This document shows positions 44,535 through 59,969 of a DNA stretch of 64,000 bases, piece by piece. Each line of letters opens with the position of its first letter. The first letter of the stretch is position 1. The DNA is from Armatimonadota bacterium (lineage in GTDB: Bacteria > Armatimonadota > SYMT01). The notes under the pieces are model-generated. The model made no database searches, was not told where the DNA came from, and saw only the letters and a program-made list of their open reading frames with translations. Location: the NCBI GenBank assembly GCA_046292385.1, contig JBKBRF010000015.1, positions 32,001-96,000 on the forward strand, in the 5' to 3' direction. Position numbers and translations under genes: made by a program.

Positions 44535-45251
44535 ATGACAAACTCAAGGAAGGCGGTCGTTCTGCTGAGCGGTGGGCTGGACTCGACGACCACTCTCGCG
44601 ATCGCTCGGCAGCTAGGCTATGAACTGTACGCTCTGACCTTCTATTATGGCCAGCGCCATGGATCCGAGATCGAGGCGGCCCGAGAGATCGCTCGCCGAT
44701 ACAGCGTTGCCGAACACGTGGTCGTCGAGATTGACCTACGCCTCTTTGGCGGATCGGCGCTGACAAGTGAACTCGAGGTCCCCAAGGGGCGTGCGCTGTG
44801 GGAGATCGGAGAGGGAGTCCCGGTGACGTACGTGCCTGCCCGCAACACGATCTTTCTCTCCTACGCCCTCGCGTGGGCGGAGACTCTGGGTTCCAGCGAC
44901 ATCTTCATGGGCGTGAACACCCTTGATTACAGCGGCTATCCGGACTGCCGACCCGAGTATGTGGCGGCCTTCCAGCATATGGCTAACCTCGCCACCCGGG
45001 CTGGAGTGGAGGGACGGCAGGAACTTCAGATCCACACGCCGCTGATCCATCTCAGCAAAGCCGAGATCGTCCGCAAAGGCGTTGAACTCGGGGTTGACTA
45101 CGGCCTGACCCGTACCTGCTACGATCCCTCTCCTCAAGGCGATGCGTGCGGGGCTTGCGATGCGTGTCTCCTGCGCCTTAAGGGGTTCGCCGAGAATGGC
45201 ATGAACGATCCGGCACCCTACGCCGGCGCACTAGTTCCCGCATCCGCCTGA
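44535..45251 (+). CDS. queC: 7-cyano-7-deazaguanine synthase QueC
   Basis: [34 protein letters not shown] and C...CGACDAC. Confidence 0.96.
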
Positions 45252-46363
45252 GGCTGCTGTCCTTGGGCTGGGATACATGAGGTTGGGCCTCCCAGCGTCT
45301 CCGCCACCCGCTCAACCAGCGGCAAGTAGATGGAATTGTCCAGCCGGTCGCGGTAGTTCGCCTCGTACGTGCCTGCTGCGATCTGCTGGTCGATCCACTC
45401 CGCCTCTTGAAGCAGTACCCATAGGTTATGGGTGGCGCGGTGGCAGAATCCGGGTAGCTTGTCTGCCTTCAGGCCATCCACCCCGTGCTGCTGGCAGGGT
45501 GGGCAGACGCACTCAGCAAGCAGGTCCCACTCTCTCTCGTTGGGTTTACGCCCGCGCCAGCTTCCCATCTCGACTAGGGTGCGGTCGCCGCTTCCCGGCA
45601 ACTGCACGATCCCGCGAGCCGCGCGGTTGCGCCAGCCGCAAGAATCGGCTGAATCGAACCCCAGTAAGGCGGCCAGGTGGAGGGTGGCGGTGCCACCTAT
45701 GCCGAAGACGTGCAGTTGCTTGCCGGCCAGGACCTTCCGTGTATCTCCGAGCCCTTGAATCACCGCATCATATGCCATCGCCTTCTTGGCGCGGAGCAGG
45801 TTCGGCACGATGGCACCGAGAGCGACATCCCCCTTGCGTGCGAGGTTCTCGTCCCCAAGTAGCTGCTCCAGGTACTCAGCGAGCAGAGGGCTGATGTGGA
45901 TCACCGGAGCATAGCCGTCGTGTTCATGCTGCCGGTTCATGGCCATCGTCTTGGTCAGACACTGCTTCTGCTCCTCATCACTCATGCTGGGGAGCGGGAT
46001 AAAATCCTGGGCGATCGGCTTCCAATCCGGCCCCGCCGCCTCGACAAAGCGCTGGTACTGCTCCACGTCCGTGGTTAGGCCCTTGGAAGAGAGATTGAAT
46101 GCCCCGTTATCTAGAAAGATAGCCACGCCCTTCGGCACGCCAAGGAAGTCGCGCAGGCCCTCCTTCATCGCTTGCTGTCGTTTCGGGGAATCGATATGCT
46201 CCGGCTCCTGATCTGGCTGGGTGGGTCGTGTTTGGTTGCGGGGAAACTCCGCATAGGAGACCATCAGAGCCTTCAGTGCCTCCAGAAAGTACGGCGAGTC
46301 TGGATCCCATACGGGCGGATGGAGGTTTCTGAGACTCAGCCCGGCGACGACCTGGATGCCCAC
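45218..46363 (-). CDS. tRNA-guanine transglycosylase-fold protein (TGT/DpdA-like)
   Basis: [22 protein letters not shown] and Zn site CVCPPC...HN. Confidence 0.8.
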
Positions 46364-59800: not shown

Positions 59801-59969
59801 CCGGAACGGCCGCGATGACATGATCCAGGAGCTACACGAGTTGAAGCAACATCTTCAGCGGATCATTCTCGTGTCCCATCAGGAAGAGTTCACCGGTGCC
59901 TTCGCTAATGGATACGGGATCGCCCTCGAAAACGGCGGCTCTCGCGTTAGCTTGCTTGAGTGTGGGTAG
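56829..59969 (+). CDS. sbcC: Rad50/SbcC SMC ATPase
   Basis: GPNGAGKS, coiled coils, Zn hook CSLCG, and IDEGFGSLD...VSH. Confidence 0.93.
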   Translation: MIPVRVTLEGFLSYRERQTLEFDGSSLWVLAGPNGAGKSAIFDAITFSLFDTHRLGRQRADELINHHCDSLEVEFDFLGEGTLYRVRRTVRRVGRGLRATREAFRLTATDEGKVSVDPIPGTDAEEGFSRWIARTIGLNYDAFTSSVLLLQGQSEELLKAAGKKKAYEILKQLIDLSPYEQLHVLTDARRKHWDGQKKGWTNTRDGIAPVSDEALEAAEKELRAAVEVWTKAQEAVERLTALAQQAKQWEQLSGDLQKLEGEIRVARDLLAREEEIVRNFARLEELERVLPMLGSILAERGRLDKQESESEELEQQLPGLESALQQAEAEHQQTTEKGERVASRITDLQAKRAEVSRRVADIAPLVTRLEHWETVLQGLKEVEEQLGQFPSDLAEQLEAARQRDRALEEAEKSFPWLRSLTEAREGLAGALGRLKAASDRLQEIEAALKGVKQAIGEQSTRVEQARAEVSKMDVVVGRAKERCDQARERLELFLDAATERVCSLCGQQIDETHVADERQRLETATAAAAAEVEDGEAALVEARGTLGTEQAALADLQQQADSLEKDRQKEERKRDRAEQDARQHRGQLTSAYGNLSPGYRARVAAAAPQDDATWLAASFSNENDLQTAAGEAGARTHHRLHLNGLEQQQRGRERLDDRRQHLEDQRQELEKSVNVEGMREARAEKPLLEERQQLLDDELGRASKEQEAAKKALEAATRAVDSARQQRDRHAQKLTTAIATREEIRRNVTGAVQKLEESWRDLALAADEAKLNEYQLEKKALAPAREEKRAVDSARDALAGLQKRATELEEKIGSLPREARRASTEVDAELNVARAGRDGADECRRHADGRYKELQDRKQRREAAEEKLRTAERQHYLHNRLTQLLGREGLQLSLLRRAERGIVDLANETLEGLSRGRLHLELRSDGASDSALDLVAYNLDTGPKPVAVALNSGSQKFRIAVSLALAIGRYAGLEARRIESVIIDEGFGSLDRNGRDDMIQELHELKQHLQRIILVSHQEEFTGAFANGYGIALENGGSRVSLLECG

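Follow-up and report, generated by a model that had tools for sequence, protein, structure and literature searches.

In the Dpd system of Salmonella Montevideo and others, a TGT-fold transglycosylase, DpdA, is paired with a second enzyme of the YaaA/DUF328 fold, the system depends on preQ0 (7-cyano-7-deazaguanine), and an ATPase and nucleases are its presumed restriction parts. The second enzyme, DpdC, is a DUF328 protein and turns DNA-bound preQ0 into ADG (PMC12839542). A phage-encoded pair follows a two-enzyme logic as well: the transglycosylase DpdA2 inserts preQ0, and ArcS2, a small ArcS-C1-type enzyme with a C-X3-K motif, converts its nitrile, giving dG+ in DNA (PMC10516641). A third relative, BREX-related capture (BRC), is a predicted defence system with a HerA/FtsK translocase, a GNAT protein and a TGT homologue (PMC12839542). 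Here we describe a locus that shares features with all three. It occupies positions 44535 to 59969 of a 64,000-nucleotide stretch from an Armatimonadota bacterium (positions 32,001 to 96,000 of contig JBKBRF010000015.1, assembly GCA_046292385.1; this whole stretch is called the window), and encodes QueC, a TGT-like enzyme, a DUF6884 protein, two HerA-NurA pairs and SbcD/Mre11 and SbcC/Rad50. With slightly better than even confidence, we read it as a modification module of the Dpd kind to which exchangeable nuclease-translocase effectors are joined, that is, as a restriction-modification-type system that would rely on a predicted 7-deazaguanine mark in DNA. Two modules that can also be found separately make up the locus, and DUF6884 and the TGT-like enzyme form its core.

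The 12 genes, whose starts were refined on homologue alignments with each codon checked, are divided into a left operon of four, a right operon of seven, and queC. The left operon lies on the minus strand in the order DUF6884-NurA1-HerA1-TGT-like and is convergent with queC, the 3' ends of queC and the TGT-like gene overlapping by 34 bp. The right operon diverges from it and runs sigma-orf249-M78-NurA2-HerA2-SbcD-SbcC. Start and stop codons overlap by 4 nt at DUF6884/NurA1, orf249/M78 and SbcD/SbcC, and HerA1 and TGT overlap by 1 nt, the remaining intergenic gaps being 1 to 30 nt. An initial annotation, made from the sequence alone, had recognised QueC, the TGT-like enzyme, the two HerA-NurA pairs and Mre11-Rad50 in two divergent, tightly coupled operons with a convergent queC; every one of these genes is found with family support, and the codon-level coordinates confirm the arrangement.

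The cassette has in common with Dpd a TGT-fold transglycosylase with the same catalytic Asp/Phe/His set, a second enzyme whose predicted fold resembles YaaA/DUF328, a predicted dependence on preQ0, and an ATPase and nucleases. However, library scans of 14 proteins of the locus (Pfam, PADLOC and NCBIfam) found neither the ParB-like DpdB nor DpdD-K, the second enzyme is DUF6884 instead of DUF328 and has an extra C-terminal domain, and the place of the effector is taken by HerA-NurA, with or without SbcCD, or by a Z1-domain protein. The phage DpdA2 and ArcS2 pair has an anti-restriction role, whereas the cassette family is nuclease-linked and its TGT-like family has no match in 50,697 phage records. 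BRC contains PglZ, a BrxC-like DUF6079 protein, a STAND NTPase and DUF4007 (PMC12839542), none of which is found among the 14 cassette proteins, and its authors report no DpdC homologue; the cassette, in contrast, has NurA and DUF6884. The earlier statement that the gene content does not match Dpd, QatABCD or type IV CBASS agrees with the PADLOC and NCBIfam scans. The QatC model NF041925 is matched at 16 bits against a cut-off of 280, queC is a QueC equivalog, and there are no matches to QatA, QatB or QatD. Type IV CBASS joins a CD-NTase cyclase to the QueC-like Cap9, the TGT-like Cap10 and OGG; no cyclase or Cap protein is matched among the 14 proteins (PADLOC, Pfam) besides the CapP-like M78 protease. 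SbcC matches the Lamassu LmuB model at 100 bits, but LmuA and LmuC are missing, its partner is SbcD, and it belongs to the SbcC/Rad50 families. MADS was likewise rejected for missing signature genes or sub-threshold scores.

Evidence for a linked system comes from the neighbourhoods of the TGT-like gene (45218 to 46363, minus strand, last in the left operon). A scan of one genome per species gave 117 relatives, from which 80 loci were retained. Their neighbouring genes were classified with family hidden Markov models built from the loci, and the 58 loci whose flank upstream of the TGT-like gene reaches at least 4.5 kb were taken as informative. A HerA and NurA pair lies beside the TGT-like gene in 53/58 of these and DUF6884 in 54/58, which upholds the proposed tie of a deazaguanine transglycosylase to HerA-NurA; among the 22 loci with short flanks, the pair is still seen in 5. 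Three types of pair can be distinguished. Type A, the NurA1-HerA1 pair of the window, accounts for 31 loci; in the 7 loci of type B its place is taken by the whole sigma-to-SbcC operon; and type C (13 loci) is HerA3-NurA3, in reversed order and with a weakly detected NurA domain (E about 5e-4). One further locus has A and B, and one is mixed. The usual gene order is, nearly always, DUF6884, effector, TGT. Two of the five pairless loci carry a Z1-domain protein (595-747 aa) between DUF6884 and TGT (L068:7705-9948 and L078:7811-9964), as does a short-flank locus outside the 58 (L028:1838-3625). In the others, an AIPR protein adjoins the TGT-like gene (L022:11166-12515), a 1447-aa PD-(D/E)XK superfamily 1 helicase lies beside it (L056:5035-9378), or the locus is degenerate (L060). 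Z1 and AIPR proteins are components of predicted restriction systems.

The effector is exchanged while its surroundings stay in place. Three Latescibacterota loci, L042 (type A) and L071 and L045 (type C), are collinear across flanks, DUF6884 and TGT at 80-92% nucleotide identity, but the 3.3-kb HerA-NurA segment of the first has no nucleotide similarity to that of the other two. Similarly, the TGT-like genes of the Microcoleus loci L082 (A) and L081 (C) are 96.5% identical and stand next to different pairs. Near-identical flanks around different pairs show that the HerA-NurA module has been exchanged in situ, with type C in the place of type A. The effector types are intermingled in a quick maximum-likelihood tree of 91 TGT-like proteins, whose well-supported branches require no fewer than 17 changes for type A, 10 for type B and 11 for type C.

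The TGT-like protein (381 aa) matches PF01702 at 29.5 bits (cut-off 26.3) and the PADLOC DpdA model at 19.6 bits (E=8.1e-5), and its family profile finds ArcTGT (1iq8, E=1.4e-8) and DpdA (7ui4, E=4.4e-5) in the PDB. Its AlphaFold2 (AF2) model, at a mean confidence (pLDDT) of 84, is a TGT barrel with 1iq8 as top Foldseek match (TMq 0.66); the protein consists of the catalytic barrel alone, and a PUA domain is absent. D85, F89, D120, H156 and D240 are invariant in an alignment of 20 family sequences, as are the zinc ligands C285, C287, C290 and H312 (CxCxxC...H). Profile alignment with 7ui4 and 1iq8 sets the first five opposite DpdA D95, F99, D130, H181 and D256, which provide the general acid/base, the base-stacking Phe, the base-recognition pair and the nucleophile (PMC10164549). 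By these conserved positions, the protein looks catalytically competent; it belongs to a separate subfamily. The family is not rare: 1412 proteins at E<=1e-3 were found among 8000 candidates scored, with 97 cluster representatives (50% identity) at E<=1e-30, and at least 117 species genomes were matched.

The DUF6884 protein (49616 to 50353, minus strand, first in the left operon) matches PF21818 at 38.3 bits (cut-off 30). C11, K15, L57 and S58, which belong to its CxxxK and LSAxxG motifs, are invariant in 22 cassette-linked members. The Pfam authors describe DUF6884 as a distant YaaA relative with these two motifs, and possibly a base-flipping DNA protein (PMC11701544). Its AF2 model (pLDDT 91) was compared with 48,161 PDB representatives by VIA-align, which placed YaaA (5caj, Z 10.3) and AF0587 (2q07, Z 10.1) above the next match (Z 7.0). 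AF0587 is, we assume, an ArcS-C1-type (DUF5591) protein. Foldseek matches were weak (2q07 at E=9.8e-4, 5caj at rank 24), so that only VIA-align split both from background, and the sequence profile had only chance-level matches in the PDB. Weak sequence matches point the same way: PF03883 (YaaA/DUF328) is matched by 19/22 members (best E 3.9e-6), PF17884 (DUF5591) by 3/22 (best E 0.0023), and the PADLOC DpdC model by the window protein (E=5.1e-5). The C1 domain of ArcS (DUF5591) has the motif PC-X3-KPY (PMC10516641); of the longer form PC-X3-KPY-X2-S-X2-H, C-X3-K is invariant in the DUF6884 family, and the full motif is absent. Judged by its predicted fold, the N-terminal domain is YaaA/DpdC/ArcS-C1-like, a distant relative of DpdC and not a member of that family. 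The initial annotation offered no interpretation of DUF6884, and a partner of this kind strengthens the case for DNA modification. As a lead only, residues 163-246 match a SCO5918-like cluster (Atlas model, TM 0.72), and SCO5918/ScoMcrA_N domains occur in the Atlas fused to McrB-like ATPases and SRA-HNH nucleases.

QueC, the preQ0 synthase (44535 to 45251, plus strand), matches PF06508 at 252.5 bits and TIGR00364 at 200.5 bits (cut-off 150.3). It is the sole full QueC match in its genome, and none was found in any of six same-family genomes. Among the QueCs compared, its nearest relatives are same-phylum ones (71% and 66% identity, as against 31-54% for other cassette-linked QueCs), and therefore it was probably recruited within the phylum. 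The initial annotation had taken queC as part of the set, and here it fares poorly: only 4/80 loci have a queC at up to 10 kb from the TGT-like gene (tblastn), to which L063 adds a fragment, and this speaks against our reading as well. The deazaguanine link is, however, restored in a wider form by recurrent transporters, by QueC-less carriers that have one, and by varied placements of QueC and QueD. A queuosine-precursor transporter adjoins the cassette in 13/80 loci, just before DUF6884 or just after TGT; all five tested (5/5) score 114-146 bits on TIGR00697 (cut-off 51). QueC is present in 32/40 carrier genomes, and four of the eight carriers that lack it have a transporter beside the cassette. 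QueC and/or QueD stand beside the cassette in the window, L018, L062, L050 and L106, with QueC directly after TGT in L018, directly before it in L106 and convergent in the window, while L062 has the one-strand order QueD-QueC-DUF6884-NurA-HerA-TGT. In the window's own genome (98.45% complete), FolE, a QueD-like gene and, elsewhere, a canonical tgt gene are present; neither QueF nor a queuosine-precursor transporter was found. Separately, the fragment in L063 (Trueperaceae; L063:11004-11803) is a 207-aa open reading frame (ORF) on the opposite strand directly after the TGT-like gene, which covers the first 55 QueC-profile positions only and overlaps a YhhQ-like transporter match; it may be a frameshift or a remnant.

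The effector of the left operon is a translocase and nuclease pair. HerA1 (46363 to 48111, minus strand, with an alternative TTG start at 48156) is a hexameric-type DNA translocase ATPase that matches PF01935 at 82.8 bits and the PADLOC HerA model PDLC04105 at 203 bits, with Walker A GAGKS and Walker B LVLEEAH in its translation. Its best matches in the PDB are 9x1l (E=2.5e-36), the anti-phage HerA 8xau (5.3e-32) and Sulfolobus HerA 4d2i (2.6e-31). NurA1 (48132 to 49619, minus strand, 495 aa) is a divergent NurA-domain nuclease that matches PF09376 at 32.2 bits (cut-off 21) over profile positions 2-253 of 254. A HerA joined to an effector is also seen in Sir2-HerA and DUF4297-HerA, whose solved HerAs match HerA1 at E 1e-27 to 1e-32; unlike these, the cassette has NurA as effector and an attached modification pair. 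Both systems were rejected as candidates, with NF042944 at 147 bits against 850, NF042943 at 110 against 800, and no Sir2 or DUF4297 protein.

We propose that in this first module QueC would complete preQ0 synthesis, a YhhQ-type transporter importing the precursor elsewhere, and that the TGT-like enzyme would swap guanine in DNA for preQ0 by the double-displacement chemistry of DpdA and TGT. The cysteine of the DUF6884 CxxxK motif may then convert the DNA-bound preQ0 nitrile to the final mark, much as DpdC forms ADG and ArcS2 forms G+, and the C-terminal domain of DUF6884, of the type IV restriction kind, may bind DNA. A HerA hexamer with NurA would load on DNA and degrade what is unmarked, and HerA may in addition provide ATP-driven DNA handling, as DpdB does for DpdA.

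The right operon begins with an extracytoplasmic function (ECF) type sigma factor (50554 to 51192, plus strand, as for the whole operon; TIGR02937 52.9 bits, cut-off 42.9; Sigma70_r4_2 and r2 domains), preceded by the 200-bp divergent intergenic region (50354 to 50553). No sigma-70-type promoter was found in this region in a scan of 44300-60700, in which 3 promoter-like and 11 terminator-like sites were seen against 2.5 and 8.8 expected, that is, at chance level. The second gene, orf249 (51194 to 51805, 203 aa from M47 of the ORF), is conserved in NurA2-anchored loci and has no Pfam, NCBIfam or PADLOC match and no detected helix-turn-helix domain; its Atlas clusters above 0.9 are all unnamed, one at 0.89 has HTH_31 in 31% of members, and Planctomycetota are their commonest phylum. 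It is followed by an ImmA/IrrE-type M78 metalloprotease with HExxH (51802 to 52593; PF06114 55.2 bits, PADLOC CapP 58.8 bits). In L018 orf249 is fused to the M78 gene (454-aa ORF), and we propose that it is the partner or substrate of the M78 protease. An M78 metalloprotease directly before effector genes is also seen in CapH-CapP, ImmR-ImmA and DdrO-IrrE, but the partner here is the ECF sigma factor and orf249 and not an Xre-type repressor.

NurA2 (52598 to 53641) and HerA2 (53653 to 55566) are of the bacterial, Deinococcus type. They have no Pfam, NCBIfam or PADLOC match (52598-55566), and were assigned from family profiles searched against the PDB, which find D. radiodurans HerA (7f6d_B, E=3.1e-72, 246.8 bits) and NurA (7f6d_H, E=6.5e-6). 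In the family alignments, the DG motifs FVDGKD and VDGRLE of NurA2 are invariant, as are the Walker A variant GxxGxGxKxS and Walker B LDELN of HerA2. The SbcD/Mre11 nuclease (55597 to 56832) matches TIGR00619 at 93.1 bits (cut-off 77.65) and PF00149 and has the phosphoesterase motifs DWH, GDLF, GNHD and GHIH. The SbcC/Rad50 ATPase (56829 to 59969; PF13476, PF02463, PF13558) has a coiled coil with a CxxC hook (CSLC), GPNGAGKS and Walker B IIDEGF, and scores 136 bits on TIGR00618, under the cut-off of 478.5. Thus all four families of the archaeal HerA-Mre11-Rad50-NurA operon, two of them known as NurA-HerA from D. radiodurans (7f6d), stand consecutively at 52598-59969, and related loci keep this order. 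The right operon differs from its archaeal counterpart in being bacterial, sporadic and mobile, in having the ECF sigma factor, orf249 and M78 in front, and in sometimes being bracketed by DUF6884 and TGT.

The conservation of the right operon was followed from NurA2 in a metagenome scan that gave 104 relatives, from which 80 loci were retained, with neighbours found by tblastn and many contigs ending within the operon. HerA2 is next to NurA2 in 70/80 loci, M78 upstream in 72/80 and orf249 upstream in 63/80; SbcD is found in 52/80, SbcC in 47/80, and the sigma factor upstream of orf249 in 41/80. Where both flanks are informative (n=19), TGT and DUF6884 are present in 5 and neither in 14; where only the upstream flank is (n=16), both are present in 5, DUF6884 only in 1 and neither in 10. 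The right operon is thus an autonomous conserved cassette that sometimes gains the proposed writer pair of DUF6884 and TGT, and the window is a composite of two modules. The initial annotation had treated the two halves and queC as one set, and had itself named rare co-occurrence as a refuting outcome; they are indeed rarely together, as the 14/19 loci without TGT and DUF6884 attest. Module 2 would work on its own as a nuclease machine for the resection of DNA ends. Its trigger is probably the M78 protease, which, as CapP, ImmA and IrrE suggest by analogy, would remove orf249 and so release the ECF sigma factor upon DNA damage or infection, and in the window module 2 probably shares the DUF6884/TGT pair of module 1.

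Several observations weigh against a modification module of this kind. The TGT-like protein reaches 18.7 bits on the DpdA equivalog NF041059 (cut-off 200) and DpdA's large Ins8 insertion is absent from it, so that the choice of DNA, not RNA, as substrate comes from context. NurA1 finds no NurA in the PDB by profile, which leaves Pfam as the basis of its assignment. In one genome, G062, NurA1-HerA1 stand without TGT or DUF6884 within ~6 kb (L186, G062:C11:62000-78000, local 6609-10076), and the TGT-like gene is on another contig beside a helicase-nuclease. QueC is missing at E<=1e-20 from 8/40 carriers, four of which also have no adjacent transporter. In the window's genome, a QueE-like radical-SAM gene (G000:C56:23630-24391, L094) is under every QueE cut-off, and is kept in 5/6 same-family genomes that lack QueC; a complete preQ0 pathway is therefore uncertain. 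Since the right operon occurs mostly without the writer pair, it needs no mark in cis. Finally, the 139 ORFs in the flanks of 12 carrier loci are for the most part unrelated housekeeping genes and do not look like classic defence islands, although some flanks hold transposases, an EcoRV-type restriction-modification pair, or HNH and PDDEXK nucleases; the cassette is thus a compact insert that is not always within a defence island.

A bolder version of the reading, which we consider possible but doubtful, would make the cassette a new class of epigenetic immunity. HerA-NurA would come with its own writer pair, HerA would replace DpdB as the guanine-presenting motor, and the mark would be a Chi-like stop that spares self DNA while unmarked DNA is degraded; the writer pair would serve at least four effectors (two HerA-NurA lineages, NurA-HerA-Mre11-Rad50, and the Z1 protein).

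Mere co-location, with a housekeeping queC and both operons as independent cargo of one mobile element, is an unlikely explanation. It draws on the separate occurrence of each module (type A in 31/58 loci, module 2 alone in 14/19), but in L067, L064, L104 and a plasmid of Aulosira laxa DUF6884 and TGT enclose module 2 itself on the same strand, and the loci that combine A or C with B (the window, L057, L130, L102, L018, L032 and L111) show at least seven different arrangements, in differing orientations. As the only QueC of a genome with a canonical tgt elsewhere, and one that resembles same-phylum QueCs, the window's queC could serve tRNA; yet no QueF for tRNA preQ1 was found in this genome, same-family relatives manage without QueC, and QueC, QueD or a transporter recurs beside the cassette in several unrelated lineages.

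Another alternative, which seems to us a little more unlikely still, is that base exchange is a weapon or sensor that acts on invading DNA, tRNA or other RNA, flagging it for HerA-NurA or blocking its use, much as the QueC- or TGT-like proteins of type IV CBASS and Qat may act on non-self targets. The nearest solved relative by both sequence and fold is a tRNA enzyme, ArcTGT, but the TGT-like protein is a catalytic barrel without PUA or other tRNA-binding domain, and its partners are DNA translocases and nucleases. Other defence systems use QueC- or TGT-like proteins whose targets are unknown (PMC13376578). The absence of the pair from most module 2 loci implies that discrimination need not depend on a self mark. 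On the other side, DUF6884 shares a domain with DNA-modification-dependent restriction proteins (a lead only), and a DUF6884-effector-TGT bracket with a swappable effector resembles the modification modules of restriction-modification-like systems.

The distribution of the Dpd-like cassette is sporadic and cross-phylum. Of 401 genomes sampled in the phylum, 2 have NurA1, and of 41 relatives only the window's own genome (1/41) has the TGT-like gene, whereas NurA1 keeps 56-77% identity over at least eight phyla, among them Chloroflexota, Cyanobacteriota, Acidobacteriota, Bacteroidota, Deinococcota, Bacillota and Latescibacterota. The cassette is plasmid-borne in three cyanobacteria, and one PLSDB plasmid matches the TGT-like gene. 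The Aulosira laxa plasmid has nine genes on the same strand (DUF6884-sigma-orf249-M78-NurA2-HerA2-SbcD-SbcC-TGT), all annotated hypothetical except one 'putative exonuclease'. Carriers include Rubrobacteraceae, Trueperaceae, desert cyanobacteria and Chloroflexota, and cultured ones include Calothrix sp. PCC 7103, Chlorogloeopsis fritschii PCC 6912 (plasmid p6912-1), Tolypothrix tenuis PCC 7101, Aulosira laxa NIES-50 (plasmid), Adhaeribacter aerolatus NBRC 106133 and Nodosilinea sp. LEGE 07088.

This membership is among the points that favour a repair or damage-tolerance island, in which both HerA-NurA pairs and SbcCD would resect the cell's own breaks under an M78/sigma damage switch of the IrrE/DdrO type, and the TGT-like enzyme and DUF6884 would process damaged guanines or lesions instead of writing a self mark. 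Many carriers are soil or desert lineages, often called desiccation-tolerant, and the M78/IrrE-type regulator fits a role in DNA damage; both also count against the reading that we prefer. HerA2 is close to the Deinococcus protein, AlkA-like and UDG genes lie near L083, and RuvB lies near L014. Archaeal HerA-NurA-Mre11-Rad50 and D. radiodurans NurA-HerA are described as end-resection machines (PMC5715905, PMC9960219), and the DUF6884 member YfjM was recovered as a DNA-lesion interactor, YaaA being a peroxide-stress protein (PMC11701544). This is nevertheless the least likely of the explanations, since a very sporadic, plasmid-borne cassette, with effectors swapped in place between near-identical TGT and DUF6884 genes or replaced by Z1 or AIPR partners, and with recurrent preQ0-supply genes that lesion repair would not need, is typical of conflict systems.

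Around the cassette, the window, which belongs to a 134.7-kb contig of a 7.04-Mb genome, has genes of mobile elements. A type IV secretion system coupling protein, a Replic_Relax protein and a tyrosine integrase are directly upstream of queC (39801-43932). Farther left, 16013-26183 holds a serine recombinase, an Mrr-like nuclease with an N6/N4 methylase, RepO, a bPH_2 protein, a 771-aa HerA/FtsK-like ATPase and SSB, and transposases are also found left of the cassette. To its right are PolA and metabolic genes, with a DUF1559 protein, of a family typical of Planctomycetota, nearby. The mobility genes directly upstream suggest that the cassette is cargo at the edge of an integrated mobile element. 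Of the mobile island that had been suggested, this gene content is thus retained, but there are no convincing att-like direct repeats flanking the cassette and no tRNA gene was found.

At 9350-14252, a 260-aa ORF lies between two large radical-SAM proteins, one of 730 aa and one, which has a B12-binding domain, of 612 aa, and G+C is 52-54% as compared with 61-64% in the flanks (window maximum 72%). A 1254-aa RHS-repeat protein at 28766-35683 is followed by a C39 peptidase-domain protein (34143-34970) and a LuxR-type regulator. A C39-like peptidase is also seen between transporter and DUF6884 in L014 (L014:5503-6024), without counterpart in other loci. Elsewhere on the same contig (L087, G000:C15:12001-32000, local 12017-18188), a 1233-aa HD-CE and TCAD9 protein, with several receiver-domain proteins upstream, is followed by a vWA protein, and this segment may be another conflict system.

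No description of the cassette was found in literature searches aimed at it, nor in wider ones on DUF6884 and on DpdA gene neighbourhoods; the supplementary TGT/DpdA family lists of PMC12839542 and PMC10516641, which lie outside that coverage, could tabulate it. The nearest published idea is BRC, which joins HerA/FtsK to TGT in a different gene set (PMC12839542). If the reading of a Dpd-like module with exchangeable effectors is true, the cassette would be the second known cellular system, after Dpd, to write 7-deazaguanines into DNA, and would do so through another transglycosylase subfamily and another enzyme for the nitrile. A concrete, testable activity would be gained for DUF6884, so far a Pfam family of unknown function, and as cultured carriers exist, the prediction can be put directly to liquid chromatography-mass spectrometry and phage challenge. 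Effectors that change in place while the writer genes around them stay fixed are a clear natural example of modular defence-system evolution, and many bacterial phyla would have turned the archaeal-type machinery of double-strand-break resection (HerA-NurA, with Mre11-Rad50) into a restriction effector.

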